In this document: one piece after another, positions 29,400 through 47,852 of the stretch | How positions within the stretch are numbered: the first letter of the stretch is position 1 | Layout of the letters: every line of letters begins with the position of its first letter | NCBI GenBank assembly: GCA_965267575.1 | Contig: OZ254086.1 | Span: 256,001 to 320,000 of the forward strand | Source of the DNA: Calditrichales bacterium | GTDB taxonomy: Bacteria > Calditrichota > Calditrichia > Calditrichales > J004 | Length of the DNA: 64,000 bases | Direction: 5' to 3' | Program-made: the position numbers and the translations under genes | Notes under the pieces: model-generated | Told to the model about the DNA's origin: nothing | The model's input: the letters and a program-made list of their open reading frames with translations, nothing else | Databases searched by the model: none

Positions 29400-29463
29400 C
29401 CTGAACACCTGAACACATGAAAACCTGAACACTAACACACTAACACCATAACACTTTAACACA
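29400..29463 (+). repeat. Degenerate 8-bp tandem array (AACAC core)
   Basis: CCTGAACA/CTAACACA-type units; inverted counterpart at 30460-30503. Confidence 0.8.
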
Positions 29464-29476
29464 TCACCGAGGAACT

Positions 29477-30457: not shown

Positions 30458-30459
30458 GA

Positions 30460-30503
30460 GTGTGCTAAGGTGTTAAGGTGTTAAGGTGTTATAGTGTTAA
30501 TGT
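30460..30503 (-). repeat. Degenerate 8-bp tandem array (GTGTTAAG)n
   Basis: GTGCTAAG GTGTTAAG GTGTTAAG GTGTTATA GTGTTAAT. Confidence 0.85.
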
Positions 30504-30546
30504 GCGTCCCACCCTGTCATCTCGAGCGGCCGATCCGGGGCCACGC

Positions 30547-31389
30547 TCATATATCCAATGAATCGGCCGGGCTTTTTATTTTATCGATGGCGCGGGATGA
30601 AACGTGGGTATAAACCTGTGTGGTCTCCAGGCGAACATGCCCCAGCAGTTCCTGGATAAAGCGAATATCGGTGCCATCATCCAGCAGATGTGTAGCAAAG
30701 CTGTGGCGCAGGGTATGCACGGTCGCTTTCTTTTTTATGCCTGCTTTTTGCAGTGCCTGTTTCATAATACTTTGCACGCTTTTATCCGAATAGCGGCCGC
30801 CTTTGGCACCTTCCACCAGGTAATCCTGCGGCTTATATTCTTTAAAGTAGGCACGCAACACGGCAAGGGTTTTCTCCGATAAAACCACATACCTGTCTTT
30901 TTTGCCCTTACCCTGCACCACGTGGATCTTCATGCGTCTGGAATCGATATCAGCAACTTTAAGGTTAAGCAGTTCGCTTAGTCTTAGTCCGGCGGAGTAG
31001 ATAAGCAGCAGGATGGTTTTATGTTTGAGGTTATTGGTTACGGTAAGCAGACGTTTTACCTCTTCTTTGGAGAGCACCACCGGCAATTTTTGCGGTTTTT
31101 TCATTTTAATGTTCAGGGCAGCCGGCACAGGTTTATTAAGAACTTTTTGATACAGGAAGCGGATAGAAGCGATGACTTGTTTCATCGATGAAAACGAATA
31201 TTTTCTTTTCGATTTACAGTGTAACAAATATTCTTCAATCAACATATCTGTCACTTCATCCACTTTTTTAGATGCTACAAATTCCAGAAACAAGGCTAAT
31301 GCTGAAAGATAATTTTTAATGGTTTGCTCAGAATAATTTGCTATGGTAAGTTTGCTCTCAAACGCGCTAAGTATGATTTGTCTTTTCAT
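30547..31389 (-). CDS. Tyrosine recombinase/integrase (SAM-like N-domain), putative cassette integrase lacking the IntI-specific insertion
   Basis: YSEQTIKNY; catalytic R (GLRLSE), K (GKGKKDR), HTLRH, LLGH, Y (TTQVYTH); about 280 aa; divergent from the cassette array. Confidence 0.92.
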   Translation of the reverse strand: MKRQIILSAFESKLTIANYSEQTIKNYLSALALFLEFVASKKVDEVTDMLIEEYLLHCKSKRKYSFSSMKQVIASIRFLYQKVLNKPVPAALNIKMKKPQKLPVVLSKEEVKRLLTVTNNLKHKTILLLIYSAGLRLSELLNLKVADIDSRRMKIHVVQGKGKKDRYVVLSEKTLAVLRAYFKEYKPQDYLVEGAKGGRYSDKSVQSIMKQALQKAGIKKKATVHTLRHSFATHLLDDGTDIRFIQELLGHVRLETTQVYTHVSSRAIDKIKSPADSLDI

Positions 31390-31470
31390 TTTTAACAAGA
31401 TATATTTCGTACTATAAGAAACTAAAACTAGTACATATTCGCGCTATACGCAATCGTATAGCAAGATGTT
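31390..31470 (+). mobile_element. attI-like primary recombination site (copy 1)
   Basis: Conserved with 38133-38213; contains hairpin GCTATACG-caat-CGTATAGC then AAGAT-GTT; similarity between the copies ends at GTTG. Confidence 0.75.
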
Positions 31471-31483
31471 GCCACACATATAA

Positions 31484-32326
31484 ATGAAGAACTTAACGAC
31501 ACCATTAGGACTATTTGGACTTGCTTACCTGATTTACGGGTTAGTAATGAATATTCGAATGTTTACAGAACAAATGTGGCCGACTTATCTGTTCTTCATT
31601 TCAATGGGTATTGGAGTTTTCTTCTTAGCCATAAATAAGTTGACCAAAAGACTTCCTAAGTTTCAATTTTGGCAAATAATAATCGGACTTCTTCCTGTGA
31701 CAGCTTTCTATCTACATATGAAAGTTTGGAATCAAACTCACCCGACTGAGATAGCTGAAAATAGTTTAACAGAAACAAATCACAACTATCATAATGGCGA
31801 CATAATTTTTCAAACGTCAAAGTCTAGCCAAAGTAAAGCCATACAATTAGCGACAAACTCCAAATACAGTCATATGGGAATCATTTACGAAAATGATGGG
31901 CAGTTTTTCGTTTATGAAGCAGTTAAACCCGTGAAATTGTCACCACTCTCAGAATGGATAAATCGTGGAGAAAATGGACATTACGTAATTAAACGACTTG
32001 AAAACGCTGACCAGCTCTTGACCAATTCGACCTTGACCAAAATGAAGCAAATTGGAGAGCAATTTAAAGGGAAACCATATGACATTTACTTTGAGTGGTC
32101 AGACGACAAAATCTATTGCTCTGAACTCGTTTGGAAAATTTACAAGCAAGCAACAGACATTGAAATCGGAGAACTTGAGCAACTATCAGACTTTGACTTA
32201 ACAAATGATATTGTGAAAGCTAAAATGAAAGAAAGATATGGAGACAGTATCCCAATGGACGAAAAAGTGATTTCTCCGGCTGCTATGTTCAATTCAGACA
32301 AACTCGTAACAGTCAAAACCAACTGA
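31484..32326 (+). CDS. YiiX/YebB-family permuted papain-like enzyme with N-terminal membrane domain
   Basis: GDIIFQTS.S.QS.AIQLAT.S.YSHMG, YCSELVWKIY; three N-terminal TM segments. Confidence 0.88.
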   Translation: MKNLTTPLGLFGLAYLIYGLVMNIRMFTEQMWPTYLFFISMGIGVFFLAINKLTKRLPKFQFWQIIIGLLPVTAFYLHMKVWNQTHPTEIAENSLTETNHNYHNGDIIFQTSKSSQSKAIQLATNSKYSHMGIIYENDGQFFVYEAVKPVKLSPLSEWINRGENGHYVIKRLENADQLLTNSTLTKMKQIGEQFKGKPYDIYFEWSDDKIYCSELVWKIYKQATDIEIGELEQLSDFDLTNDIVKAKMKERYGDSIPMDEKVISPAAMFNSDKLVTVKTN

Positions 32327-32328
32327 CA

Positions 32329-32679
32329 ATGAAAAAATGGGTTTTCAGAATATCGATTTTGCTCAACATAGCCTTACTAATTGGCTGGGGTTTAAGCAGT
32401 CTAAATAGACCTTCATACAAATTAGGCCGTTTAGAAAAGGATATTACAGTTGGCAACTTTATGGGAGACTCTCTCTTATTTACGTTACCAAAAGGACTGA
32501 CAGTAAGAAATGCTTCAGAGCGCGGACTAAATGCAATTGGACAGTTTGAAAATAAAAGATTTCAAATCGTAATTTCTTCAGATGATGAACTTGTAAATTA
32601 TGATTTACCACTTGACAGTTTAGGTCCGAATGGCAATTACTATTCGGCTGACTTTGACAAGTATAACAATGAAAAATAA
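32329..32679 (+). CDS. Hypothetical membrane-anchored protein
   Basis: ORF 2 nt after the upstream stop, N-terminal TM, ends just before the attC-like site. Confidence 0.7.
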   Translation: MKKWVFRISILLNIALLIGWGLSSLNRPSYKLGRLEKDITVGNFMGDSLLFTLPKGLTVRNASERGLNAIGQFENKRFQIVISSDDELVNYDLPLDSLGPNGNYYSADFDKYNNEK

Positions 32680-32682
32680 AAA

Positions 32683-32757
32683 ATACGTGTGGCAACAACG
32701 GCTATAGCACATGCCCTTCGGGACACGTGCCATAGCCAAACCGTTGTGCGTCACCCT
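32683..32757 (+). mobile_element. attC-like site 1
   Basis: AAC-aac-GGCTATAGCACATGCCC-ttc-GGGACACGTGCCATAGCC-aaacc-GTT. Confidence 0.8.
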
Positions 32758-32871
32758 GAAAACCCACCGCACATTTAACACATTTGGTTTTTTGCCGACA
32801 CAAAAGCCATCCCTAAAAAACCAAAAGAGCTAAATCACCCACCGCTGACAAAGACGAACTGTTAAAAACTA

Positions 32872-32913
32872 TATTTAAGAATTTGCTTAAATAAGAAACA
32901 ATTTGTATCTTTG
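32872..32913 (+). promoter_or_regulatory. Bacteroidota-type promoter (TTTG-N20-TATCTTTG) overlapped by an ArsR-type operator palindrome
   Basis: TTTG 32882-32885, TATCTTTG 32906-32913; TATTTAAG-N6-CTTAAATA 32872-32893; similar palindrome at 33990-34011. Confidence 0.7.
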
Positions 32914-32992
32914 CTGCGTTATTAAATCCTAAACAGGAAACCGCAAGGTTCAATCTGACTGATTAAAACAATTAAAAAAACAGATTAATATT

Positions 32993-33370
32993 ATGGAAAA
33001 CAATCAATCGTGTATCAGAGTGTTTGCCGACAAGGTTCAAATAGACAATTGTAGAGAAATACTTCAAACCAATGACAAGGCATTCAGCCAACTGAGTGGA
33101 CTTTTAGCATTGGCAGGAAACGAAGTAAGGTTGAAAATCTTATTTCTCTTAGAAGAAGAAAACGAGCTTTGTCCTTGCGACCTTTCAGACATTCTCGGAA
33201 TGAGCATCCCTGCCGTTTCGCAACACCTCAGAAAACTAAAAGACGGAAACGTCATTGAAGGAAGAAGAGAAGGACAGACCATTTTCTACTCTTTGAAACA
33301 AGAGCAACTGACTTTACTTCGACCATTTTTTAAACACATCATAAACAATTCAAAAAAGGAAACAGTATGA
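32993..33370 (+). CDS. ArsR/SmtB-family metalloregulator
   Basis: RLKILFLL..ELCPCDLSDIL.MS.PAVSQHLRKLK; first gene of the mer operon. Confidence 0.92.
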   Translation: MENNQSCIRVFADKVQIDNCREILQTNDKAFSQLSGLLALAGNEVRLKILFLLEEENELCPCDLSDILGMSIPAVSQHLRKLKDGNVIEGRREGQTIFYSLKQEQLTLLRPFFKHIINNSKKETV

Positions 33371-33972
33371 ACAAGAAAAACAACAGACTTGTCGGAGCGG
33401 GAGTACTTTCGGCAGTAGCAGCATCACTTTGCTGCATTACACCTGTATTGGCTCTTATTTCAGGAGCATCAGGCGTGGCATCTACATTTTCGTGGATGGA
33501 ACCAGCAAGACCTTATCTTATCGGTATCACCGTTTTGGTGTTAGGCTTTGCTTGGTATCAGAAACTCAAACCACGAACAGCCGAAGAAATCCAATGTGAT
33601 TGCGAAGATGACGAAAAGAAACCCTTTATGCAGACCAAAACATTTTTGGGAATTGTAACCGTGTTTGCAGCCTTGATGCTCGCTTTTCCAAACTATGCAC
33701 ATATTTTCTATCCTTCAAACGACAATAAGGAAGTTGTAATCGTCAATGCCTCTGACATCCAAACAGTAACTTTTGATGTAAAAGGAATGACTTGCACTGG
33801 TTGTGCTTCACACGTAGAAAATGACGTTAACAAATTACCAAGCATTGTTAAGGTAGATGCGATTTATGAAGAAGCGACTGCCAAAGTAGAATTTGACCAA
33901 ACTAAAGTGAGTGTTGCTCAAATTGAAGAAGCCATCAACGGTACAGGTTACAAAGTGGTTGGCAAGAAATAG
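33367..33972 (+). CDS. merTP: Mercuric transport protein, MerT-MerP fusion
   Basis: AASLCCITP TM Cys pair, cytoplasmic CDC, C-terminal HMA GMTCTGC. Confidence 0.9.
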   Translation: MNKKNNRLVGAGVLSAVAASLCCITPVLALISGASGVASTFSWMEPARPYLIGITVLVLGFAWYQKLKPRTAEEIQCDCEDDEKKPFMQTKTFLGIVTVFAALMLAFPNYAHIFYPSNDNKEVVIVNASDIQTVTFDVKGMTCTGCASHVENDVNKLPSIVKVDAIYEEATAKVEFDQTKVSVAQIEEAINGTGYKVVGKK

Positions 33973-34019
33973 TATTTTTTTGCCTCTCGTATTTAAGAAC
34001 TTAATTAAATAATTACGCA

Positions 34020-34382
34020 ATGAAAAAGAATAATTTGATTCTATTATGTGCTTTGTTCCTTATTCGAATTAGTCAGGTCAATGCTCAATGTTGCAAACCG
34101 ACTGACAATAAAGCACAAACAACAAGTTCGATCCAGCAAGAAGGAAAAACCCTGATAGTGAAAATCACGGGAATGACTTGTGCAGGTTGTTCCAACCATA
34201 TCTCAAATGCCCTCAAAGAAGTGGAGGGAATTATGTAACACAAAGTGGAATATCCGGGCGATTTGGCAATTATTCAATACGACCCGAAGAAAACAAATCC
34301 TGATGCTATCATCAAGGTTATTGAACAGACAGGCTATAAAGCCGAAATCATAAAAGAAACTCAAAAAAAGAAATCATTATGA
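34020..34382 (+). pseudogene. Secreted HMA (MerP-like) metal-binding protein interrupted by an in-frame TAA
   Basis: Signal peptide, GMTCAGC; TAA at 34236-34238; the same frame continues HKVEYPGDLAIIQYDP..IEQTGYKA to a TGA overlapping the merA ATG. Confidence 0.8.
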
Positions 34383-36031
34383 ACAAAGAAACCATAAAAC
34401 TTGACATCACAGGTATGACCTGCGACCACTGTGCCACAAGCATTGAAAAACTACTTTCTAAAAATGAAGGTGTAAAAGAAGCTAATGTGAGCTATCCAAA
34501 AGCCACTTGTGAATGTTCTTTTGACCCTGCCAAAACCAGCAAAGAAGAAATCATCAACACCATCAACGGCACGAAAAACTATCGTGTAAAAAGTGAAATC
34601 CCAGAAAATGGAAGCAGTGGCAAAAACCAATTTGACCTTATAATAATAGGTGGCGGTTCGGCTGCATTTTCGGCAGCTATCAAAGCGGAAAGTTTAGGTC
34701 TATCGACTTTAATGGTAAACGGTGGATTGGACTTTGGCGGGACTTGCGTCAATGTGGGTTGTGTACCTTCTAAAAACCTAATCCGTGCAGGTGAAACTGC
34801 TCATCACGCTACGCATTCCAACTTTGAAGGCATCAAACCAATAGGAGTTGACATTGATTTTGCTCAAATCATCAAAGACAAGAAAAAATTAGTAGCCACA
34901 CTTCAAGAGAAAAAATATATGGATGTGGTGAGCGATTTTGAAAACCTGACTATGTTAAAAGGTTGGGCAAAATTCAAAGACCCAAAAACCATTGTAGTGG
35001 ACGGCAAGGAATATAAAGCCATCAAATTTTTAATAGCCACGGGAGCTACTACCAACATCCCGACTATTGAAAGATTGGACAAAATTGACTATTTGACAAA
35101 TGTTTCTCTTTTCGATTTGGAAGAAAAACCCGAAAGCCTGACCATTATGGGAGCAGGTTACATCGGCTTGGAAATCGCAATGGCTTACAATCGTTTAGGC
35201 GTAAAAGTCCGCATCATTGAATTTACCGACCGAGTATTACGGACACAAACCCCCGACATCAGCGAAGCATTGGAAACCCAAATGCGAAAAGAAGGTATTG
35301 AAATCTTACCAAATTTCAGAGCCGTAAAATTCGAGAAACAAGGAAATGAAACCATCATTCACTGTAAATGTCCTGACGGTTCATTTACGCAAATAGTAGA
35401 AAATGGGAAGGTCGTAATTGCCACAGGAACAAAAGCCAATACAAACCAATTAGGAATAGAAAACATTGGTTTGGAACTCACCAAAAGCGGACATATCGCT
35501 GTAAATGAAAAGATGGAAACTAATCTATCCCACATTTACGCAGCAGGTGACGTAACCAACACCCCTGCATTTGTTTACACAGCCGCCTTTGAAGGAAAAA
35601 TAGCCATTGAAAATGCTTTTTCAGGAACAGAAAACAAAGCCGATTATTCCTCTTTACCTTGGGTAGTTTTTACTGACCCACAAGTTGCAGGTGCAGGTTT
35701 AGACGAAGCACAGGCAGAAGTCAAAGGCATTCCGTTTGAAGTTTCAAAATTGGAACTGAAAGACGTGCCAAGAGCAATTGCAGCAAATGACACAAGGGGA
35801 TTTATCAAACTCATTCGCAACACCGAAACGGACAAATTGATAGGAGCGAGAGTGGTCGCACCCGAAGGCGGAGAACTTATCCAACAATTAAGTATGGCAA
35901 TCAAATACGGAATAACGGTGAAAGACTTAGCAGACAGTTTCTACCCTTATTTGACTTTGGGAGAAGGCATAAAATTAGCAGCCATAACTTTCGGAAAAGA
36001 CGTATCGAAATTAAGTTGCTGTGCCAGTTAA
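34379..36031 (+). CDS. merA: Mercuric reductase
   Basis: N-terminal GMTCDHC, redox GGTCVNVGCVPSK, FYPYLT, C-terminal LSCCAS. Confidence 0.95.
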   Translation: MNKETIKLDITGMTCDHCATSIEKLLSKNEGVKEANVSYPKATCECSFDPAKTSKEEIINTINGTKNYRVKSEIPENGSSGKNQFDLIIIGGGSAAFSAAIKAESLGLSTLMVNGGLDFGGTCVNVGCVPSKNLIRAGETAHHATHSNFEGIKPIGVDIDFAQIIKDKKKLVATLQEKKYMDVVSDFENLTMLKGWAKFKDPKTIVVDGKEYKAIKFLIATGATTNIPTIERLDKIDYLTNVSLFDLEEKPESLTIMGAGYIGLEIAMAYNRLGVKVRIIEFTDRVLRTQTPDISEALETQMRKEGIEILPNFRAVKFEKQGNETIIHCKCPDGSFTQIVENGKVVIATGTKANTNQLGIENIGLELTKSGHIAVNEKMETNLSHIYAAGDVTNTPAFVYTAAFEGKIAIENAFSGTENKADYSSLPWVVFTDPQVAGAGLDEAQAEVKGIPFEVSKLELKDVPRAIAANDTRGFIKLIRNTETDKLIGARVVAPEGGELIQQLSMAIKYGITVKDLADSFYPYLTLGEGIKLAAITFGKDVSKLSCCAS

Positions 36032-36040
36032 TCCGACCCA

Positions 36041-36106
36041 AAGGCACACACTCTTGCAACTCGCACCAGCCAACGCTTGACCAAAAATTGCAAGAGAGAG
36101 TGCCTT
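36041..36106. other. Long imperfect hairpin after merA
   Basis: AAGGCACACACTCTTGCAA ... TTGCAAGAGAGAGTGCCTT. Confidence 0.6.
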
Positions 36107-36159
36107 CCCTACCCCAAAAAATCCTACCTTTGAAAATTGACTAAACCGACTTAAAATAA

Positions 36160-36299
36160 AGGGCGAACGCACAACATTGTGTATAAGCAATAGCGGGTGA
36201 AGTGGTAAATCGAAGGTCTGTGTCTTTTATAAACATTGTGCTAAACTGAAAGTTTTGTACTTTTAAATCCGCTACTGCTCATACACTTGACCGTTAAAC
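36160..36299 (+). mobile_element. attC-like site 2
   Basis: AAC-att-GTGTATAAGCAATAGCGG ... CCGCTACTGCTCATACAC-ttgacc-GTTAAAC. Confidence 0.8.
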
Positions 36300-36636
36300 T
36301 AAAATAAACAACCCAATCATATCCCCCTTCCCCCACACAACTTTCAATAAAATCCGTTATGCCGTCACGAACCGCCAGGGACATATGAATAATGCCGCGT
36401 TTAACCTTCCGGTCAGAACGGCAAAACCACACTGCTGACAGAATGATGCTAAAAGAAGCTGTCACTGGTTCCTCACGGGTGGCAAATCCTGAACCCACGG
36501 GCAACTCTTCCATTCGTAATTTTCACATTCCTAATTCGTAATTGAATACACTTGTATGTTTCCTGTGGCGCAGATATTTTCGGTTTAATTAAATAGCCCA
36601 TAACTACAGGCCGGCTACACGGAAAGCATTCTCATC

Positions 36637-37629
36637 ATGTCCGAAGAAAATAATCTTATGAAAGCCTTTAGATTTAAGAAATACGGGTTGCCCACTGTGC
36701 TTGAGATTGAAGAAGTTGCAAAACCGGTACCGGGCGACGAGGAGGTGCTGGTGAAAATCCACGCCGCTGCCATCAATGACTCGGATTGGGGACTGGTAAG
36801 GGGCAAGCCATTTGTGATTCGTCTGTTCTACGGTCTTAAAAAACCAAAAATAAATATTCCGGGCGTGGATATTTCAGGCAAAGTAGAAGCGCTGGGCAGT
36901 AACGTGAATTCCTTCAAAGTCGGTGATGAGATTTACTGCGACTTGTCGGAATGCGGCTTTGGCGGGTTTGCCGAATATGTGTGTGTTCCGGAAAAAGTAT
37001 TATCCAAAAAGCCTTCCAACATTAGTTTTAATGATGCCGCTGCTCTGCCCCACGCCAGTCTGCTGGCACTTCAGGGACTGGTGGAAAAGGGAAAGGTCAA
37101 ATCCGGACAGAGTGTCCTCATCAACGGTGCCGGGGGAGGTGTGGGCACCCTGGGACTGCAAATCTTAAAATCATACGAGCTCAAAACTACAGGCGTCGAC
37201 AGCGACGAAAAACTTGATATGATGAAAGCGTTGGGATTTGACAACGTGATCGATTATAAAAAGGTGGACTTCACCGAAACCGGAGAAAAGTATGACCTGA
37301 TCCTTGATGCAAAATCAAACAGGTCCGTATTTAAATACGCTCGCTCGCTCAAAAAGAACGGCACTTACGTCACAGTCGGTGGATCGATGTACCGGTTGTT
37401 CGAAATACTATTGCTGGGGTCACTCATTTCGCTTTTCAGCAGCAAGAAGCTGAGCGTACTGGGCCTTAAACCCAATAAGGGACTGGACCGGATTTCCGAT
37501 CTTGTGGAAAAGGGACAAATAAAACCTGTTGTTGACGGCCCCTATAAGTTTGATGAAATCCCGCGGCTGCTTCAATACTTTGGTGAAGGCAGGCACAAGG
37601 GAAAGATTGTGGTTGAAATAAAAAAATAA
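36637..37629 (+). CDS. NAD(P)-dependent alcohol dehydrogenase/quinone reductase (MDR family)
   Basis: EVLVKIHAAAIND.D, GGFAEYV, VLINGAGGGVG, GKIVV. Confidence 0.88.
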   Translation: MSEENNLMKAFRFKKYGLPTVLEIEEVAKPVPGDEEVLVKIHAAAINDSDWGLVRGKPFVIRLFYGLKKPKINIPGVDISGKVEALGSNVNSFKVGDEIYCDLSECGFGGFAEYVCVPEKVLSKKPSNISFNDAAALPHASLLALQGLVEKGKVKSGQSVLINGAGGGVGTLGLQILKSYELKTTGVDSDEKLDMMKALGFDNVIDYKKVDFTETGEKYDLILDAKSNRSVFKYARSLKKNGTYVTVGGSMYRLFEILLLGSLISLFSSKKLSVLGLKPNKGLDRISDLVEKGQIKPVVDGPYKFDEIPRLLQYFGEGRHKGKIVVEIKK

Positions 37630-37653
37630 TGTCACAAAAAACGATATACTCCG

Positions 37654-38085
37654 ATGAATTATCCAGGCTTAAATACCTTCCCTGTTAAAACCTTCGATAA
37701 AATCCGCTATGCCGATACGGACTGCCAGGGGCATGTGAACAATGCCGCTTTTTTGACCTTCCTGGAAACGGGCCGCGTGGAGATTTTATACAACCCCGAA
37801 AACGCCCTTCTCGCGCAAGGGGCCAGCTTTGTCATTGCCTCTCTGAAGCTGGATTTTCTGAAAGAGATCAACTGGCCCGGCCGGGTGGATATCGGCACGG
37901 GGATTTCCAAAATCGGCAACAGCTCGATCACCTTTTACCAGCAGCTGTTTCAAAACGGAGCCTGTGTCGCAAGTGCTGAAACGGTTATTGTGCAGGTAGA
38001 TGACAATAATGGCAAAAGCAAGCCTTTAACGGAGGGCGCAAAGAAAAGGCTGGCCGCTTGGCTGTTGGCCGAGAGCAAAGCCTGA
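37654..38085 (+). CDS. Acyl-CoA thioesterase (4HBT/YbgC hot-dog fold)
   Basis: IRYADTDCQGHVNNA.F..FLETGR. Confidence 0.9.
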   Translation: MNYPGLNTFPVKTFDKIRYADTDCQGHVNNAAFLTFLETGRVEILYNPENALLAQGASFVIASLKLDFLKEINWPGRVDIGTGISKIGNSSITFYQQLFQNGACVASAETVIVQVDDNNGKSKPLTEGAKKRLAAWLLAESKA

Positions 38086-38101
38086 ATGGGTAGAGTAATC
38101 T

Positions 38102-38142
38102 TCAAACGCATCAGGTATGATTTGTTTTTTATTTTTAACAAG
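38102..38142 (-). pseudogene. Frameshifted 5' remnant of a second cassette integrase
   Basis: Aligns to the integrase start (LLKMKRQIILSAFE) with ATG>ATA and a 1-bp deletion. Confidence 0.7.
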
Positions 38143-38213
38143 ATATATTCCGTGTCACACGAAACTAAAACCAATACATATTCGCGTTATACGCATTCGT
38201 ATAGCAAGACGTT
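38133..38213 (+). mobile_element. attI-like primary site (copy 2)
   Basis: TTTTAACAAGATATATT..GAAACTAAAAC.A.TACATATTCGCG.TATACGCA.TCGTATAGCAAGA.GTT shared with 31390-31470. Confidence 0.75.
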
Positions 38214-38279
38214 GGGGGCAATGTAGAAACGAACGACACAGAACAAGGTAAGCCGACAAATTAGAAGTAAATTAGCAGC

Positions 38280-39578
38280 ATGGAAAATGAAGTACAAGAA
38301 CCTCAATTAGAACTCTTCAAAAGAGAGACAAATAATAACGGAAAGGCAGATTTGACTTCAACCTTTGCAGACAACATGAAACTGCCTATTCATAGGTGGT
38401 ACAGGTATACAGCAGGCTTCTCAGGACCTTGGGTAAGAGAATTGATTGAAAGTGAAAATGGACAAAACGTACTCGACCCTTTCGGTGGCTCGGGTACAGT
38501 GATGCTTGAAGGTGAATACGCAGGAATTAATTCAATTGGAATTGAAGCTCATCCTTACGTTTATAGAATCGCAAAGGCAAAACTATCTTGGCAAATAGAC
38601 CCTAAAGATTTCAAAGAATCTGCAAAACAGCTACTCGAAAAAGCTAAGTCAAAGAGAATCGATAAAAAGGAGTATCCTAAACTTATTGAGAAGTGCTATC
38701 CCATTGAAATACTCGAAAAACTTGAAGCATTAAAAGTAGCTTGGATCGAATCAACAGATGACACAATTCTCAAAGAACTCAATTGGTTTGTTATCACAGC
38801 CATTCTCAGAACAACTTCGCCAGTTGGAACTGCACAATGGCAATATATTCAACCTTCAAAGACCAAAGGAAAAGTCATTGATGTGTTTCATGCTTTTGAA
38901 GCTAAGGTGTACGAAATGGCTCAGGACATGCAAAATATGCAAAGACGTTTTCCCAACGCAACAAAGAGCGAAATTTTCATGGAAGATGCCAGACATATGC
39001 CTTCCGTTGCAGACAATTGGGCCGATCTTGTAATAACGTCTCCACCTTACGCTAACAATTATGACTATGCAGATGCGACAAGACTTGAAATGACTTTTTG
39101 GGGAGACATTGATGGATGGGGAGATCTGCAAGAGAAGGTTAGAAAATTTCTTGTAACTGCTTGCACACAACATGTTACTAGCTTAAAGGATAAAGCGTCC
39201 GAGATATTAGAATCGCCATTGTTGACACCAATTAGACAAGAGATTACTGATGTGTTTAATGAATTGGCTGAAACAAGGTTAACTCGGGGTGGCAAAAAGA
39301 ATTATCACTTAATGATAATTGCATATTTCAAAGACCTTGCGGAAGTATTTCACGAGTTAAGAAGAGTAACAAAGAAGGGATGTAAGGTATGTTTTGTCGT
39401 TGGCGACAGTGCTCCATACGGAGTTTATGTGCCAGTCGATAAATGGTTAGGTGAACTTGCAGTTTATGCAGGTTTTGAATCATACGAATTTGAAAAACTT
39501 CGTGATCGTAATACAAAATGGAAAAACAGAAAACATAGAGTCCCTTTGCATGAAGGAAGACTTTGGATAAAAGGATAA
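38280..39578 (+). CDS. Amino-DNA methyltransferase (probably N4-cytosine)
   Basis: HRWYRYTAGFS, motif I VLDPFGGSGT, motif IV DLVITSPPY. Confidence 0.88.
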   Translation: MENEVQEPQLELFKRETNNNGKADLTSTFADNMKLPIHRWYRYTAGFSGPWVRELIESENGQNVLDPFGGSGTVMLEGEYAGINSIGIEAHPYVYRIAKAKLSWQIDPKDFKESAKQLLEKAKSKRIDKKEYPKLIEKCYPIEILEKLEALKVAWIESTDDTILKELNWFVITAILRTTSPVGTAQWQYIQPSKTKGKVIDVFHAFEAKVYEMAQDMQNMQRRFPNATKSEIFMEDARHMPSVADNWADLVITSPPYANNYDYADATRLEMTFWGDIDGWGDLQEKVRKFLVTACTQHVTSLKDKASEILESPLLTPIRQEITDVFNELAETRLTRGGKKNYHLMIIAYFKDLAEVFHELRRVTKKGCKVCFVVGDSAPYGVYVPVDKWLGELAVYAGFESYEFEKLRDRNTKWKNRKHRVPLHEGRLWIKG

Positions 39579-40456
39579 TGGCAAAATCACCAGCACATAA
39601 ATGGGGGCAAATAATAGGAGACTTTCTTGAAGAAGTCTTTGCTACTGAACTTTCAAAGTTTGCCCGAAAACATAAGTTATACTTAGACACTCAAGGCGAC
39701 CGTCCGGCTCGATCAGGGAAAAAGGTGAGTTGGATTGACACATTTGAAAATTCTCATGACTTGGATTTTGTTCTTGAAAGAAATGGAACGAAAAACAAAA
39801 TTGGAGACCCAGTTGCATTCATTGAAAGTGCTTGGAGAAGGTACACCAAGCATTCAAGAAATAAAGCTCAAGAAATCCAAGGTGCTATTTTACCATTAGT
39901 AGCTACACATAAGAATTTTGCTCCTTTTATGGGAGTTATGTTAGCAGGAGAATTTACAGGCGGAGCATTGAATCAATTAAGATCATTAGGCTTCCATGTT
40001 CTTTACTTCCCTTATGATTTGATTCTTCAGGCATATAAAAAGTATGGCATAGATGCAAGCACTGAAGAAAACACGACTGAGAAAGATTTTCAAAATAAAA
40101 TTGACAAGTGGGAGAAATTTGATGATAAAAAGAAGTTGGCCAATTACCTTCTGAGACTGAATAAGGTTGAAGTAGAAACTTTTTTTGAAAGTCTTGAAAA
40201 GGCCGTATCAAGGTATATCGAATCAATTAGTGTTTTGCCTTTGCATGGAGCTTCAAATACTTTGACAACGGTTAAAGAAGCGATAGACTTTATTGAAAGC
40301 TACCAAAACGAAAATGGAAGCCTTCCTGTTTTGAAATACGAAATTGTAGTTCGATACAATAACAAGGACAAGGTTGAAGGTATTTTCAATTCAAAAGAAT
40401 CTGCAATTGAGTTTCTTGAGTCGTATGCTGCTCCTAAACCTAAGGACAAAAAATAA
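39578..40456 (+). CDS. Putative type II restriction endonuclease (PD-(D/E)xK-like)
   Basis: TAATG coupling to the MTase; E..HDLDFVLE..AFIESAWRRYTKHSRNK acidic motif. Confidence 0.7.
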   Translation: MAKSPAHKWGQIIGDFLEEVFATELSKFARKHKLYLDTQGDRPARSGKKVSWIDTFENSHDLDFVLERNGTKNKIGDPVAFIESAWRRYTKHSRNKAQEIQGAILPLVATHKNFAPFMGVMLAGEFTGGALNQLRSLGFHVLYFPYDLILQAYKKYGIDASTEENTTEKDFQNKIDKWEKFDDKKKLANYLLRLNKVEVETFFESLEKAVSRYIESISVLPLHGASNTLTTVKEAIDFIESYQNENGSLPVLKYEIVVRYNNKDKVEGIFNSKESAIEFLESYAAPKPKDKK

Positions 40457-40460
40457 AAAA

Positions 40461-40605
40461 ACACTGCCCCCAACAATGGGTATAAAACATAGGGCGGATA
40501 GTGGTTTCCGCAAATTTCGGGTTCTTAGCAAGCTTAGTCTCGGTGGACAAGTTCGCAGCTCCGAAATGCCCTACGTTTCATACCCGAGACCGTTGTGGCT
40601 AATTT
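40461..40605 (+). mobile_element. attC-like site 3
   Basis: AAC-aat-GGGTATAAAACATAGGGC ... GCCCTACGTTTCATACCC-gagacc-GTT. Confidence 0.8.
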
Positions 40606-41670
40606 AAAACCTGTCGTTCCAGAATTTTATGACAAAGAAAAAAAAGACCTTAATAATCAGAATCCTATTGTTCAGTGGAACGGCAATCTCAATGTTTTTT
40701 GTACCGTGGATATTGGTAAAGGCTTGGATTTTACCCCTACCTGATACAATTCAAGAACAAGTAGATGAAGCAATTGGGCATGGGTTTGATGGAATGGTTG
40801 TCTACATAGACCAAGCGGGAAAACAACCCCAATTTTATACAGGCGGGTGGAAAGATAGAATAAAGAAAATTCCAGCCGACCCAAATTCGCTATTCAAAAT
40901 TGCCAGCATAAGCAAACTTTATACAGCAGTGGCGGCCACCAAGTTGGTCAAAGAAAACCGCTTGTCATTTGACAAAAAACTAACAGATTATCTACCGGAA
41001 CTAAAAGGCAGAATAGAAAATGCTGAAGAAATCACTTTGAAAATGATGATTCAACATCGGTCCGGGATTCCTAATTATACAGATAATCCAGAGTATTGGT
41101 TAGATGAACAAGAGAATGGTAAAAATGCCTTAGATTTTGCCTTAGATTTACCTGCCAGCTTTAAACCAGACAAGGACTATGAATATTCTAACACCAATTA
41201 TTTGTTGCTGCGCAAGATTATGGATAAGGTTTTAGGATACAATCATAACGAATATATCAAAGAAAAAATTTTGAGACCCCTTAACCTTAAAAACACCTTT
41301 TTTTCAATTAACGAAGTGGATTTAGAAGATGTGATGAGTGGTTACTATGTGGGGTATAACGAAGATTTTAAAGCTCGTGAATATGGAATGCTGGCTACAG
41401 CAGAAGATGCTGGTATTTTCTTGCGAGCCTTAAACGAGGGTTCGGTGTTTGACGAGGGAGAAAAGGAAATCTATCCTTATGAATATAATCATGGAGGTTT
41501 GGTAGTCGGCTATCAAAGCCTTGCAGAATATCACCAAGATATTGATGCTGTAATTGTTCAATTTATCAACACTACGGATTTTGAAGGTTATGAATGGAAT
41601 TTATCGGAAATTACAATTAACCGAATTGTGAAAATTTTAAGAAAGAAAAACTAGCCACAACACGGTGTGT
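40592..41670 (+). mobile_element. Gene cassette 4 (serine hydrolase) with truncated attC-like site
   Basis: Starts GTTGTGGCTAATTT; ends AAACTAGCCACAAC (13/14 reverse complement, contains the gene's TAG); only ACGGTGT of the hairpin remains. Confidence 0.7.
40629..41654 (+). CDS. Serine hydrolase, beta-lactamase/D-Ala-D-Ala peptidase fold
   Basis: IASISK (SxxK), YSNTNY (YxN), NHGG. Confidence 0.88.
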   Translation: MTKKKKTLIIRILLFSGTAISMFFVPWILVKAWILPLPDTIQEQVDEAIGHGFDGMVVYIDQAGKQPQFYTGGWKDRIKKIPADPNSLFKIASISKLYTAVAATKLVKENRLSFDKKLTDYLPELKGRIENAEEITLKMMIQHRSGIPNYTDNPEYWLDEQENGKNALDFALDLPASFKPDKDYEYSNTNYLLLRKIMDKVLGYNHNEYIKEKILRPLNLKNTFFSINEVDLEDVMSGYYVGYNEDFKAREYGMLATAEDAGIFLRALNEGSVFDEGEKEIYPYEYNHGGLVVGYQSLAEYHQDIDAVIVQFINTTDFEGYEWNLSEITINRIVKILRKKN

Positions 41671-41795
41671 GTAATTTTGTCTACCTTATGAAAAAGCAAA
41701 AATTAATTATTGTACTACTTTTTGGACTTTCAAATTTATCTATCATTGAAAATTCAATGTCAGTTCGTAGAAGCCCCGATAAAACATAGTAGAAA

Positions 41796-43598
41796 ATGAG
41801 CACCCACATACCCATATCATCCAATAAATCCATTGCGGTTCTCCCCTTTGTTAATATGAGTGCCGACCCAGATAATGAATACTTCAGCGATGGGATTACC
41901 GAAGAAATAATCAACGCCCTAACCACCGTGAAGGGCTTGAAAGTCATTGCCCGCACATCCTCTTTTGCGTTTAAGAATAAAAATATAGATGTGCGAACCA
42001 TTGGTGATCTGTTAGGAGTAAGTACGGTTTTGGAGGGGAGCATCCGGAAAGTCAAAAACAGGGTACGCATTACAGCGCAGTTAATCAGTACGAATGACGG
42101 CACTCACTTCTGGTCGAAAAATTTTGATCGGGATTTGGAGGACATATTTGCACTACAAGATGAAATAAGTTTAAACATTGCAGACCAGATCCGGGAAAAT
42201 TTTGGTCATCTCCATATTCGGGAACATCTGATTGAAGCGCCTACACAAAATATGGAGGCCTACAACCTTTATCTTAAAGGTCGCTACCATCATTTAATGT
42301 GGGACGGACAAGGAATCGCAAATGCAATAGAACTCTATGAACAGTGTGTAGCGATAGACCCCTCATTTGCTTTGCCTTACTTTGGTTTGGCTTATTGTTA
42401 TGCAATGGCCGGATCCTGGGGAAATAATAAAGGCTTATTACAGATGTCAGAAGAGGATCTCAGCAAAGGTTTTAATTTAGACAAACAATCCTACGTAGGG
42501 TATTTCAGTAAAGCGACATTGTCCTTTTGGGGGCAATGGGATTTCATCAAGGGGCATAAATTTTTTCAAAAATCAATAGAGCTGAATCCATCCTATACGG
42601 AAGCAGAAGAAGGTTTATGCGAATTGTATACAGCAGTAGGTTATTTTGAAAAAGCGCACCGGCATACTGATAATATTTTAAAAATAAATCCTTTATCTCC
42701 GAACCATTATTTTACCAAAGCAAATATTTATTATCTAAACGAAGACTACACGAAAGCTTTAGAATGTATAGAGACCTCTTTGAGCATCAATCCGGATTTC
42801 ACACATTCCATCGCATTAAAACAACTTTGTTTAATTCTTTCGAAAGATTACGAAAAGCTAAATGACTTCTTAGGTCAAACCCCTTTGGCCGAGAGACCAG
42901 AAGAATGCAGAGTATTGTACAAGTTGGTCAATCCGGAAGAAAAGATCGATGTTGATATCAGCAGGGTTAGCTTAATGATAAAAGAAGATTCCGGGGGAAC
43001 GCTTTTTCCCTGGCAACTTTTTTTGTTGGTCTATTTGGACAAACACGAAATGGCATTGGACTTTTTGGAAGAAAACATCAGGATGCGTACCGGTCAAATC
43101 ATAAACTTTATGAATATTCCGTTCCTTAAACCCTTGCGCCGGCATAAGCGATTTCAAGATTTAGTACAAGCTGCTTTCGGGGTAGAACTCTTGCCACCTA
43201 ATCCCGAAAAACAAATACGAATTGACCCTCCCAAGACATTGATGTCAGTTACTGAAATCGACAAGCTTTTAGAAATATTAGGAAAGGGAATGAAGGAAGA
43301 AAAGTGGTTTCAAAAGCCATCTTTAACTTTACGCGAGCTGGCCGAAAACCTGACTATTAGCAGTAACCAGCTTTCCTGGTTGCTAAATGAACAAATTGGC
43401 CAAAATTTCAATGAATACATCAATAGTTTTCGTTTGGAGAACTTCAAAGAGAAGGCCCTAAATCCTGCCAATAGCCACCTTACCCTTTTAGCGCTAGCTT
43501 ATGAAAGCGGCTTCACTTCTAAATCGGTATTCAATACCTACTTTAAAAAAACCGAAGGGATGACACCGAAAGCCTGGCTGCGGTCTAATCAAATTTAA
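41796..43598 (+). CDS. AraC-family regulator with N-terminal TolB-like domain and TPRs
   Basis: SIAVLPFVNMS..NEYFSDGITEEIIN, TPR region, C-terminal LAYESGF.SKS.FN.YFKK..GMTP. Confidence 0.88.
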   Translation: MSTHIPISSNKSIAVLPFVNMSADPDNEYFSDGITEEIINALTTVKGLKVIARTSSFAFKNKNIDVRTIGDLLGVSTVLEGSIRKVKNRVRITAQLISTNDGTHFWSKNFDRDLEDIFALQDEISLNIADQIRENFGHLHIREHLIEAPTQNMEAYNLYLKGRYHHLMWDGQGIANAIELYEQCVAIDPSFALPYFGLAYCYAMAGSWGNNKGLLQMSEEDLSKGFNLDKQSYVGYFSKATLSFWGQWDFIKGHKFFQKSIELNPSYTEAEEGLCELYTAVGYFEKAHRHTDNILKINPLSPNHYFTKANIYYLNEDYTKALECIETSLSINPDFTHSIALKQLCLILSKDYEKLNDFLGQTPLAERPEECRVLYKLVNPEEKIDVDISRVSLMIKEDSGGTLFPWQLFLLVYLDKHEMALDFLEENIRMRTGQIINFMNIPFLKPLRRHKRFQDLVQAAFGVELLPPNPEKQIRIDPPKTLMSVTEIDKLLEILGKGMKEEKWFQKPSLTLRELAENLTISSNQLSWLLNEQIGQNFNEYINSFRLENFKEKALNPANSHLTLLALAYESGFTSKSVFNTYFKKTEGMTPKAWLRSNQI

Positions 43599-43813
43599 GC
43601 TGGTTTAAAAGGTGTCAAATCTCACTATAAAGTCCGAAATTACATTTCAGGACGATTCATCTTTCTTTTAACTCCACTTTTGCATCCATCAATTCAGTAA
43701 AGCAGAGTAAATAATCATCGGATGATGATTTCTTTCCTCTTTATCAGATGAACTATCGATAACGGGAGGGGCTTTGTAGAAATCGGAATTTCAAAAAAAG
43801 GAGTCGTATTATC

Positions 43814-44464
43814 ATGAAAAGTCTATTTACAATTTTTTTGTTTTTTTGCACACTTAGTGCTTTTGCTCAGGTTAAATCACCGGAGAGTAATGCAACTGAA
43901 GTTGCCCATGAGTACAGGGTAAGTTTACCTTATTTTGTTCCGGAAGGGCTTATCGTGGATTCCTGGGACGATCGAACAAGTACACGACACTTAGAGCTTC
44001 ATATAAAACGTAACCTGGATAATAAAAATATCATAGGTTTGAAGTTTACCTCCTGGCGATTGTTTCAACCAATGGGAATCACATGGTGGGATGGTCTTTT
44101 AGATAAGCTCGAGACAGAAAGTGAATTCTATCCAGGACATGTGCGAGAAATAGGAATAGGTATAACATACCAGCGTATGCTATGGAAAGGACTATTTGCA
44201 ACTGTTGAAGTTCTACCGCAATTTCAAACCTACTTGGATCTAGACGGTAAAAAAATTGGAAATGATTTTAAACTTTATACGTCGTATCATCTTGGCTACC
44301 ATATCGCATTTGGTGAGGAAAAACGATTTTTTATAGAACCACAAATTAATTGTATGTACTGGATGTTTGACAACAATGCTCCTGATGGATTTAAGCAGCT
44401 GGATGATAAATGGAGAAACTACTTTCTTTTTGAGCCGCAGATTTACTTAGGGATAACATTTTAA
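43814..44464 (+). CDS. Hypothetical exported/outer-membrane protein
   Basis: GGAG RBS, signal peptide, aromatic-rich, C-terminal F. Confidence 0.7.
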   Translation: MKSLFTIFLFFCTLSAFAQVKSPESNATEVAHEYRVSLPYFVPEGLIVDSWDDRTSTRHLELHIKRNLDNKNIIGLKFTSWRLFQPMGITWWDGLLDKLETESEFYPGHVREIGIGITYQRMLWKGLFATVEVLPQFQTYLDLDGKKIGNDFKLYTSYHLGYHIAFGEEKRFFIEPQINCMYWMFDNNAPDGFKQLDDKWRNYFLFEPQIYLGITF

Positions 44465-44493
44465 ACTTAGTCTAACCAACCAGGATTCATAAT

Positions 44494-45108
44494 ATGAAAA
44501 CAATTTTAACAGTATTATCTATCTGCATTTTCCTAAGCAGTAATGTAGCTGCTCAAGTAGAAGAAGAATTTTCTTCATCCAAATCACATTCCCCACTCGG
44601 TGCATTCAAGCATTCTGTTAATATATGTCCTATCGCCCCGGTTTTCGGATTTTATTCGATTAACTATGAATACCTGATTAGTCCGCAGGATGGAATTGTT
44701 GCTCGCTTCGACTATGAAGATGTTCCTGAGACTTACACGGACGCTTCGATAGAGTCAAGTGGTATAGGTTTTACAGTGAATTACCGGAGGTATTTGTATG
44801 GGGAAATAAATTCTATATTTCTTGGAGCTTACACCAGATATAGAATCTACGAAGGAAGTGGTAAGCTAAATTCAAAAAAGTTCGATCTTACCCTAAAATC
44901 TTTTTCTATTGGACTGAACGCAGGAAAACGTTGGGTCTGGAATAGTGGTTTTAATATAGTCTTTTCATTGGGCTATGGAATTGATATAAATAACAGGGAG
45001 GCAAATCCGACTGACAACTCTATTGAATCGATACTTGACCAATTTGAAAAGGAATATGAATTCATGTCCCCGTTTTATGGAGAATTCTCAATCGGTTATA
45101 CATTCTAA
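44494..45108 (+). CDS. Outer-membrane beta-barrel protein (DUF3575-like)
   Basis: Signal peptide; YSINYEY, GKRWVW.SGF, SIGYTF C-terminus. Confidence 0.65.
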   Translation: MKTILTVLSICIFLSSNVAAQVEEEFSSSKSHSPLGAFKHSVNICPIAPVFGFYSINYEYLISPQDGIVARFDYEDVPETYTDASIESSGIGFTVNYRRYLYGEINSIFLGAYTRYRIYEGSGKLNSKKFDLTLKSFSIGLNAGKRWVWNSGFNIVFSLGYGIDINNREANPTDNSIESILDQFEKEYEFMSPFYGEFSIGYTF

Positions 45109-45282
45109 CTCATAAAATCCAATCTTATGGACAAAAAACTACAGAAAGCCGCCTTTTTAAAAATTTGTACATTACCTTTTGCGCGGATATTTTCACTTAA
45201 ACAAAATCCTTAATCCGCGAGGGGATGCACGCCATACGCGCCATACACGCATAGTCCCCATAAAATGGCAGGAAGCATCAGA

Positions 45283-46224
45283 ATGAATCAACAAAAGAGC
45301 ACCATGCGAGCGGTCGTCTGTCCGAAATACGGACCGCCGGAGATTTTGGAAATAAGGAACATACAAAGGCCGATCCCAAAAAAAAATGAGGTTTTGGTAA
45401 AGATAATTGCCGCATCTGTAAATACGGGAGATGTCAGAATCAGGGGGCTAAAGGTAAAAGGGTTCTTAAAAATCATTATGCGTGTTGTACTGGGATTTTC
45501 AAAGCCCAGAAAACCCGTTTTGGGGGTCGTTTTTTCTGGCATCGTTGAACAAGCGGGAGAGGAAGCGACACAGTTCAAGGCAGGTGACGAGGTTTATGGT
45601 ACAACCGGCTTTAAACAAGGCTGCCATGCCGAGTATGTTTGTATTCCGGAAAATAAAACAATTACAACCAAGCCTGAAAACGCTTCATTCGAAGAGGCCG
45701 CAGCCCTTCCTTTTGGCGGTCAGACCGCCATATATTTTTTAAGAAAAGGCAAAATAGAAGAGTTAAACAGTCCACAGGTGCTGGTATATGGTGCAACCGG
45801 GTCCGTGGGTGCTGCTGCCGTACAAATTGCCAGGCATTATGGAGCAACGGTAACGGCTGTGTGCAGTTCAAGAGGAAAAGAACTTGCACAAAAACTGCAA
45901 GCAGATCATATCATCCTGTATGACCAGGAAGATTTCACAAAAGCGTCAAGCAAATTCGACATCATCCTGGATGCGGTTGGGAAAACCAATAAAAAGCAAT
46001 GCGGTTCGCTTTTAAAACCCCATGGTAAGTTTTTTACGGTGGAAGGAAATGACATTGCGGCTGAACGGAAAGAGTACCTTGAATTTTTGTCCGGGCTTTT
46101 TAAAAACAGGCATTACGCCGCGATCATTGATAAAGTGTATCCTATGGAACAGGTTCAAGAAGCCCACAGGTATGTGGACACAGGGAGAAAAAAAGGTAAT
46201 GTGGTTCTAAAAATTTCATCCTGA
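45283..46224 (+). CDS. NAD(P)-dependent alcohol dehydrogenase/quinone reductase (MDR family)
   Basis: YGPPEIL, EVLVKI.AASVN.GD, VLVYGATGSVG, GRKKGNVV. Confidence 0.88.
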   Translation: MNQQKSTMRAVVCPKYGPPEILEIRNIQRPIPKKNEVLVKIIAASVNTGDVRIRGLKVKGFLKIIMRVVLGFSKPRKPVLGVVFSGIVEQAGEEATQFKAGDEVYGTTGFKQGCHAEYVCIPENKTITTKPENASFEEAAALPFGGQTAIYFLRKGKIEELNSPQVLVYGATGSVGAAAVQIARHYGATVTAVCSSRGKELAQKLQADHIILYDQEDFTKASSKFDIILDAVGKTNKKQCGSLLKPHGKFFTVEGNDIAAERKEYLEFLSGLFKNRHYAAIIDKVYPMEQVQEAHRYVDTGRKKGNVVLKISS

Positions 46225-46288
46225 AAGCTAAATGCTGTGCCCAAATCCGAATAGAAACTTTATAAAACTTTACTAATCAAAATGATTT

Positions 46289-47785: not shown

Positions 47786-47852
47786 CCGATTGCACATATT
47801 TTAGACACGTCTAAAAAAATCACTAACAATTAAACAATCAAAGGTACATTGT

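Follow-up and report, generated by a model that had tools for sequence, protein, structure and literature searches.

An attI-type site carrying a dead recombinase stub very probably heads an orphan cassette array beside an intact Xer-like platform in a Calditrichales bacterium

In integrons, cassettes enter at attI, a site that lies upstream of and divergent from the recombinase gene, as in class 1 integrons (attI1) and in chromosomal integrons such as those of Vibrio. This site is conserved over about 110 bp, carries upstream repeats or palindromes as possible accessory binding sites, and is crossed over between the G and the TT of a GTT (G/TT); the cassettes downstream of it end in imperfect palindromes, attC, bounded by AAC and GTT. 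To our knowledge, only a few integron classes have a known attI site; such sites are not predictable from sequence, and act double-stranded without a hairpin of the kind described below. An insertion in the integron integrase IntI reads the bulged bases of the folded attC, and such bases set the choice of strand. Here we analysed a stretch of 64,000 nucleotides (nt) from a Calditrichales bacterium (assembly GCA_965267575.1, contig OZ254086.1, positions 256,001 to 320,000 of the forward strand; hereafter the window), which holds an intact gene for a short tyrosine recombinase, int_A, with an attI-type unit at its start (copy A) and a second copy of that unit 6.7 kb away (copy B). The locus shares with integron attI the position relative to the recombinase gene, the role as cassette entry point, the G/TT crossover, the conserved extent with possible accessory palindromes and the cassette ends. 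Unlike integrons, its enzyme lacks the IntI-specific insertion, its site carries an 8-bp hairpin imitating the L stem of a cassette site, and its three attC-like sites have no single-base bulges in their predicted stems.

Our reading, which we hold to have a slightly better than even chance of being right as a whole, is that 38087-38213 is an orphan attI-type site, left by a platform that lost its recombinase, which heads an array and is probably still usable in trans. Taken alone, its derivation from a recombinase-linked platform and its position at the head of its own array are very probable. Two described situations come close. In104, the complex class 1 integron of Salmonella genomic island 1, has two attI1 sites (PMC2297512) and resembles the present locus in having two tandem cassette attachment sites in one element, each with its own cassette and with other genes between. 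Clusters of attC sites lacking an integron integrase (CALINs) resemble its orphan array in having no functional recombinase next to them; integrase loss is their proposed origin, and Cury et al. found intI pseudogenes near 15 of 279 CALINs (PMC4889954).

The earlier note on this DNA, made from the letters alone, had claimed a second copy of the recombinase-proximal site: a duplication of about 110 bp of 31358-31471, with a stub of integrase codons that bears ATG>ATA and a 1-bp deletion, and it had named a pairwise alignment as the check. Alignment by MAFFT pairs 31358-31471 (copy A) with 38102-38214 (copy B), as claimed. A repeat search joins 31383-31471 to 38126-38214 at 87% over 89 bases without gaps and, for the left part, 31358-31392 to 38102-38136 at 80%. 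When 31358-31480 was searched by BLAST against the whole 4.73-Mb genome, copy B (38102-38214) came up at 85% identity (E 6.8e-30), together with a single further, weaker place at 2.698 Mb. The duplication is therefore confirmed by all three methods. Around the start of the recombinase gene, copy A reads GTCTTTTCAT and copy B GTTTTTTAT, a difference of one substitution and one lost base. The lesion may be placed as in the earlier note, with the deletion in codon 3, or equivalently as loss of the G of ATG together with C>T; under either placement the start codon is gone and the frame broken, and the coding part of the copy B stub is dead. Similarity of the stub is clear from 38102 (codons 1 to about 11) and possibly extends, weakly, to 38087 (about codon 18), where the stop codon of a thioesterase gene (38083-38085) directly abuts it. 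The stub of the recombinase gene also holds the repeat GCGCTAAGTATG. The two copies part immediately past GTTG, in agreement with the claim that they diverge into different cassettes after GTT. Coordinates of these and the neighbouring features are collected in Table 1.

Table 1. Features of the two platforms, their arrays and the third site of the genome
Feature	Position	Strand	Content
int_A, intact short tyrosine recombinase	30547..31389	-	280 amino acids (aa) from conserved ATG at 31389; Pfam Phage_integrase
Copy A, attI-type unit	31358..31470	+	int codons 1 to ~11 (31358-31389), P1, P2, spacer, GTT
Copy A modules			P1 TTTCGT..AAGAAA 31405-31421; P2 31443-31462; spacer AAGAT 31463-31467; crossover GTT 31468-31470
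Cassette A1	31469..32745	+	YiiX-family permuted papain-like enzyme 31484-32326; 116-aa open reading frame (ORF) 32329-32679; attC-like site 32687-32745
Cassette A2, mercury-resistance operon	32745..36295	+	ArsR-type regulator 32993-33370; MerT-HMA 33367-33972; HMA 34020-34238; MerA 34379-36031
A2 attC-like site	36167-36295	+	9-nt start/left-end complement at 36167
Segment A3	36295..38085	+	Thioesterase pseudogene fragment 36304-36426; zinc-type alcohol dehydrogenase 36637-37629; intact 4HBT thioesterase 37654-38085
int_B, stub of second recombinase gene	38087..38132	-	Codons 1 to ~11 clear, 38102-38132; start reads ATA, one base missing
attI_B (copy B), very probable orphan attI-type site	38133..38213	+	P1 TTCCGT..ACGAAA 38148-38164; P2 38186-38205; spacer AAGAC 38206-38210; GTT 38211-38213
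Cassette B1, type II restriction-modification pair	38212..40594	+	Methyltransferase 38280-39578; endonuclease 39563-40456; attC-like site 40465-40594
Cassette B2, beta-lactamase-family serine hydrolase	40594..41680	+	Gene 40629-41654; attC-like left half only, from 41652
Third attI-type site, outside the window	G000 C1 2698188-2698307 (L003/L095)		No adjoining recombinase; divergent 617-aa DNA methyltransferase

A cassette start that complements the cassette's own left end is the signature of a circular cassette opened at G/TT. All four cassettes, A1, A2, B1 and B2, carry such complements, which are exact over 10, 9, 10 and 10 nt, respectively. The start of A1, GTTGCCACAC, is complementary to the left end of its own site, GTGTGGCAAC at 32687; that of B1, GTTGGGGGCA, to TGCCCCCAAC at 40465; and that of B2, GTTGTGGCTA, to TAGCCACAAC at 41652. 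Apart from one extra reverse match of the 9-mer, these words are unique to their expected places in the window. Thus, the arrays at copies A and B were built by G/TT crossovers, and the claim that GTT marks both the primary site and the crossover point stands on the complements of A1 and B1, the first cassette at each copy. The sites of A1, A2 and B1 are imperfect palindromes with AAC...GTT ends that form long single-strand hairpins (z -3.6, -2.4 and -3.5; -17.4 kcal/mol for the A1 site, bottom strand, and -24.8 for the B1 site). In their predicted folds, the R and L stems are separated by an asymmetric internal loop, and the main stem has no single-base bulges. With an attI-type site that adjoins a recombinase gene and receives insertions at G/TT, and cassettes that end in attC-like palindromes folding as single strands, copies A and B are both cassette insertion places of an integron-like system. 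Furthermore, contigs of 76 kb and 160 kb from two runs of another study with the same species label (X19 and X20) hold A2 (32743-36286) at about 92% identity, bounded at both GTTs by different sequence on each side. A2 is thus found in a foreign context, cut at its GTTs, and therefore cassettes move in nature. Neither attI copy, nor the recombinase, A1, A3, B1 or B2 had cover in these runs, which is not evidence of their absence.

Both copies keep the hairpin, here termed P2, followed by AAGA(T/C)-GTT as the earlier note had described. Copy A reads GCTATACG-CAAT-CGTATAGC (31443-31462), then AAGAT-GTT, and copy B GTTATACG-CATT-CGTATAGC (38186-38205), then AAGAC-GTT; within the window, TATACG-N4-CGTATA without a mismatch occurs in these two copies only. 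We aligned 25 copies of the site, namely copies A and B and 23 others from relatives and metagenomes. P2 is paired in 94% of their cells, with both sides changed in 3 of 8 pairs, and sliding its 3' partner lowers overall pairing from 79% to 27-55%. Between the start of the recombinase gene and P2 there is another palindrome, P1 (TTTCGT-N5-ACGAAA), with pairing in 60% of cells. Most copies keep it, even short orphan copies without a stub, and it could serve the recombinase as an accessory site or act as an operator. In an attC-like site, the bottom strand presents the complement of the cassette start ending in AAC, a 5-nt unpaired spacer and the long L stem. The attI-type site presents GGCAAC-ATCTT-GCTATACG-loop-CGTATAGC, its AAC arm having no partner. 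Given this shared order of AAC, 5-nt spacer and stem, the attI-type site matches in layout that half of a folded cassette site which is cleaved; the proposed mimicry of the attC-like half is thereby upheld, with hairpin, spacer and GTT reproducing the R'/spacer/L-stem layout. The site would accordingly consist of the accessory palindrome P1, an 8-bp hairpin imitating the L stem, a 5-nt spacer and the cleaved GTT. The whole 113-nt unit was also considered as a single giant attC-like hairpin whose left AAC would lie in the recombinase gene; its folds (z -0.1 and -1.0) led us to reject this.

The motif was expected to recur beside homologous recombinases, and it does so within the family (G007, G002 and G003), in Marinimicrobia and in Ignavibacteria. 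In our set of 10 genomes of the family (Calditrichota), six contain the attI-type site, in ten copies. Four lie beside a recombinase gene (copy A and those of G007, G003 and G002), and six do not (copy B, the 2.698-Mb copy of this genome, G000, one on contig C330 of G005, and those on C61, C77 and C3 of G008). The G008 recombinase gene sits at a contig end (residues 57-283 only), and its linked site is not assembled; the G002 contig stops exactly at GTT. Nine of the ten keep GATGTT or GACGTT, all diverging right after GTT; the remaining one, the recombinase-linked G003 copy, departs after the hairpin and before GTT. In the wider alignment, all 25 copies keep GTT and then diverge. Among 51 more distant loci with full flanks, a strict rule (a 7-9 bp inverted repeat and GTT 3-7 nt after it) flagged 18, which include Marinimicrobia sites reading GCTAAACGCAAT...GTTTAGC-AAGATGTT and Ignavibacteria sites. 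Of the 16 most distant (Flavobacterium, Cytophagales and similar, at most 51% identity), it flagged none. A pattern scan of metagenomes gave 14 loci. Three of these (L108, L110 and L121) were set aside because the surrounding site was missing, leaving after this context filter 11 sites on 10 contigs (L119 and L120 are one contig), of which 3 are beside a recombinase gene and 8 are not. A narrower metagenome pattern, close to copies A and B, had no matches.

Sites without an adjoining recombinase gene thus recur. The long orphans (copy B and those of G005, C61 and C77) keep 10-18 recombinase codons, all four stubs ending within codons 10-18, and the short ones (C3 and the 2.698-Mb copy) start at P1; a longer remnant was seen in no orphan examined. 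For the four orphans in relatives, tblastn at E up to 10 over 1.5 kb of left flank detected no recombinase remnant, its only matches having E 5.6 and 6.3. Three orphans head cassettes with a start/left-end complement: C61 (9 nt), C3 (10 nt) and the 2.698-Mb copy (10 nt); the contigs of the G005 and C77 copies end too early for this comparison. G008 alone has at least three orphans. On its C61 and C77, a co-oriented ORF stops 26-40 nt before the unit, and the left flanks of the G005 and C3 orphans are non-cassette sequence. The metagenome contig of L120 bears, within a cassette array, two units (oriented positions 1356-1524 and 2262-2432), about 90% identical over some 175 nt and 908 nt apart, each following cassette material, with no recognisable recombinase remnant between them. 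Its first unit stands directly after a cassette ORF whose start nearly complements the unit's first bases (TCCACATA). In the present genome, the 2.698-Mb site heads a paralogue of A1 (YiiX-type enzyme 68% and small ORF 81% identical) with its own attC-like site; the next cassette of that array holds a restriction-endonuclease-like gene. A profile of the ten family copies, run against the genome, matched the three copies only (E 1.5e-32, 1.8e-28 and 1.2e-19), all of which belonged to its training set; no fourth copy was found with it, the next match (E 0.023) lying inside a coding gene at 590 kb.

The sole cognate recombinase gene in the genome for these three sites is int_A. The list of ORFs begins it at TTG 31398 (283 aa). 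Its product matches Pfam Phage_integrase (4.6e-42) together with a SAM-like N domain, and scores 240.1 against NCBIfam NF040815 ("site-specific tyrosine recombinase/integron integrase"), above the cut-off of 220. The catalytic domain keeps an intact active site, with the motifs LRLSE, GKGKKDR, HTLRHSFATH and GH...YTH in the translation. Against the integron integrase model TIGR02249, it scores 221.5, under the cut-off of 265 and in two stretches. Against the integrase VchIntIA (2a3v), residues 7-182 align with 4-178 of the chain and 206-279 with 245-318, such that 24 query residues face 67 of the chain and about 43 are missing, including the IntI insertion. Its best match in both sequence and length is archaeal XerA (5hxy; 9.9e-48), in a single stretch over residues 9-272. 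Judged by its sequence, int_A is therefore Xer/XerA-like and lacks the IntI-specific domain of about 35 residues near patch III (the I2 helix); since this insertion is missing, it is not a canonical integron integrase. The additional domain is given as a defining trait of integron integrases in PMC4889954, PMC9668308 and PMC7790495. IntegronFinder-type tools would probably miss int_A because they rely on this insertion. The system works like an integron, run by an enzyme without the domain that defines IntI.

The resemblance of int_A to Xer-type recombinases (archaeal XerA, and bacterial XerC/XerD at dif) extends to its best structural match and to NF040815, and stops at its role. A close homologue is present in only 5 of the 10 family genomes, at non-syntenic chromosomal places and heading variable cassette arrays, and two Xer paralogues, 33-37% identical, are additionally present in every genome checked. 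Int_A is thus not a housekeeping Xer gene for chromosome dimers. In the literature searched, in which subscription journals were not covered, we found no account of integron-like arrays whose recombinase lacks the IntI insertion, nor of orphan attI sites with integrase stubs outside complex class 1 integrons.

How copy B came about, and whether it still works, can be weighed against these data. Copy B would descend from a second recombinase-plus-site platform, present as an old duplicate or an import. Afterwards, the body of int_B and the terminal attC-like site of A3 would have been removed, so as to leave the thioesterase stop against about codon 18. Two histories may lead there: either the platforms stood in tandem, or a circular element bearing a recombinase gene entered array A, and in both cases a deletion came after. 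Int_A, encoded 6.7 kb away, would then insert and excise cassettes at copy B in trans. Because all modules of copy B are kept, such use is a credible prospect, which we put, from the conserved modules, at a little under an even chance.

A number of observations weigh against this reading. Copy B gave no direct sign of being active. Its hairpin, with a G-T mismatch, is the weaker of the two (-4.7 kcal/mol, z -1.4, against -8.2, z -2.4, for copy A), and its spacer reads AAGAC, GAT preceding GTT in 22 of the 25 copies. Its surroundings have decayed, in that no attC-like site follows the thioesterase gene, a thioesterase pseudogene fragment is present and only a half-site follows B2. G005, a genome 95% complete, keeps an orphan unit and has only Xer paralogues of 34-36% identity; an orphan site can thus persist without its enzyme. 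Copy A is nearer to the recombinase-linked site of G007 (88%) than to copy B (85%), and copy B is therefore old and not a recent duplicate. One comparison with copy A speaks for the reading: the remainder of the unit up to GTT agrees in 70 of 81 columns for copy B, as closely as for G007 (71 of 82), and the recombinase codons in 26 of 32 and 30 of 32. This fits a relaxed constraint on the coding part with the site kept, but the contrast is too small for significance. Lastly among the points against, the short-read contig of 14,141 letters that bridges both copies comes from runs X15 and X17 of one sample, probably the source of the genome, and is hence not independent.

Taken together with the addiction that the restriction-modification pair of B1 could exert (an inferred role), which alone might fix the segment, the weaker hairpin, the altered spacer, the flank decay and the G005 precedent would suit a fossil: copy B as the dead relic of a lost platform, its array frozen and its conservation owed to limited time or chance. 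We consider this unlikely, if well worth weighing. P1, P2, the spacer length and GTT are all kept at a divergence at which neither the start nor the frame of the stub survives; the intact gene for the cognate enzyme lies 6.7 kb off; and B1 and B2 each still show a perfect 10-mer complement between start and left end. These points argue for a site that is still usable.

The second of the two histories deserves its own account as a variant of the origin step. A circle bearing int_B, attI_B and, after these, the genes for the thioesterase and the dehydrogenase might have joined the attC-like site of A2 through its attI, and the int_B body might have been deleted later. The GTT of the A2 site is indeed the exact starting point of A3, as that of attI_B is of B1. 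Platforms also lie at different chromosomal places in different genera: that of G007 between homologues of genes adjacent at 2.11 Mb in the present genome, and that of G003 beside homologues of its 4.33-Mb region, which argues that a platform moves as a unit. (The G005 orphan lies near homologues of window 8.6-15.7 kb.) However, this history needs two events, and nothing left by the deletion tells it apart from plain tandem platforms. Neither a circular form nor a matching free element was found, and the ends of the G007 island are not clean GTT junctions. We regard such a cointegrate as improbable.

Somewhat more doubtful still is that the unit is no remnant of a separate platform at all, and instead a module copied within arrays, serving as the downstream site of A3. 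The abutting thioesterase stop codon would be expected then, as would the ORFs ending 26-40 nt before the units on C61 and C77 and the two L120 units that each follow cassette material. The left part of the unit, however, shares homology with the coding sequence of the recombinase, the start codon standing at a conserved distance, which is why we derive it from a recombinase-linked site. Moreover, the A3 start GTTAAAC has no complement at the unit's left end, only a chance-level 7-mer occurring elsewhere; in contrast to the attC-like sites, the unit as a whole does not form a single long hairpin (z -0.1 and -1.0); and the G005 and C3 orphans have non-cassette left flanks. An assembly artefact or a recent tandem duplication, which nothing beyond the repetition itself suggests and the former of which the earlier note had named as a way for its claim to fail, is very improbable: the copies differ by about 15% and have different flanks, the genome is one closed 4.73-Mb contig, and the contig found in both X15 and X17 covers 28000-40591 through both copies, ending in the B1 site, with 0 differences and 0 gaps.

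Returning to the orphan-site reading, the ten family copies and the metagenome contigs invite a wider proposal, which we hold to be rather doubtful: the attI-type unit would be a copyable modular landing pad, one short recombinase, though devoid of the insertion regarded as essential to single-strand recombination of the integron type, would serve several dispersed platforms in trans, such as the three of this genome, and the clustering of stub endpoints would reflect site-specific removal or relocation of the gene and not random deletion.

Several features of the arrays and their surroundings are recorded here. No attC-like end was found for A3, its expected left-end word TTAGTTTAAC being absent from the + strand. 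The thioesterase aligns by tblastn with the A3 leader over residues 1-41 (51% identity, E 6e-11). The corresponding fragment, part of a second thioesterase gene 5' of the alcohol dehydrogenase and the intact thioesterase, stands directly after the GTT of the A2 site, and residues 119-134 may also be present there in another frame (36304-36464). The A2 copy of X19 and X20 has about 970 extra letters between a merP-like gene and merA. In X15 and X17, contigs with a depth far above that of the host genome share the site sequences of A1 (32693-32745) and A2 (36171-36286) with other flanks, which points to near-identical sites in other, more abundant members of the sample; a joint of 36286 to 40543 in a high-depth X15 contig, whose shorter side has 22 letters, was taken as a similar site of another organism and not used. 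The B1 enzymes are recognised by PADLOC (MTase_II 4.3e-135, REase_II 3.2e-71). After B2, no right half of an attC-like site was seen; the half-site and a 34-codon ORF resembling a signal peptide come after the gene (41652-41790). In G007 (L093/L094), a B2 homologue of 75% identity on the 3' side of the recombinase gene has a similar half-site remnant and a full lipoprotein-like ORF of 195 aa. A REP-like element with TGTCATCTCGA occurs at window positions 30515, 49285, 49376 and 58058 (the word itself has 14 forward and 9 reverse occurrences genome-wide), one copy standing just past the 3' end of int_A and an inverted pair at 49.3 kb; arrays of a related repeat of about 110 bp precede the orphan site on C3.

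Other candidates were set aside. A genome-wide finder of attC-like sites (9-mer inverted repeat, AAC/GTT ends) gave 1046 raw matches against 1514 in a reversed-genome control and was discarded as noise, and a stricter regular expression was overfitted, returning only the three window sites and missing that at 2.698 Mb; we make no claim on the number of attC-like sites in the genome. The leaders of two alcohol dehydrogenase genes (36552-36636 and 45165-45264), which look attI-like by eye, were not detected by the ten-copy profile. These paralogous leaders have a 43-nt stretch in common (36552-36594 and 45165-45207, 74% identity, GCGC.GATATTTTC...), which may be a shared promoter or operator. 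The word GCAAGATGTTGC at 49256, 12 bases as in copy A, was judged a chance match within a terminator-like hairpin after P-II and ammonium-transporter genes. Rfam had no match in 30000-50000 at E up to 1. A promoter scan found TTGTCT-17-TATATT on the + strand (31378-31406) and one match on the minus strand, two against a shuffle mean of 1.0, which is not above chance.

Set beside the described systems, the locus keeps its own character. The second intI1 of In104 is reportedly truncated as well. In contrast, In104 is a recent mosaic of near-identical class 1 segments in a clinical mobile element, whereas the copies here are 85% identical, chromosomal, of Calditrichota and tied to another type of enzyme. 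Unlike a CALIN, the orphan array retains a recognisable primary site and the first recombinase codons, and stands 6.7 kb from an intact paralogous platform. A CALIN is recognised by at least two attC sites with no integron integrase within the cluster distance; the orphan array has one complete attC-like site and one half-site, and the intact recombinase 6.7 kb upstream is not an IntI.

In summary, a natural duplicate and 23 further copies define the site, the modules and the exact crossover of an integron-like system, and the main use of the finding is as a key that defines the primary site of this system. Int_A lacks the insertion that the literature treats as both defining and necessary for integron integrases, and the predicted folds of the cassette sites here lack bulged bases likewise. 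Arrays without an integrase can keep their landing site, which offers a concrete explanation for the origin of some orphan arrays and for how they could remain active. In Calditrichota, a mercury-resistance operon and a restriction-modification pair travel as cassettes of this kind.

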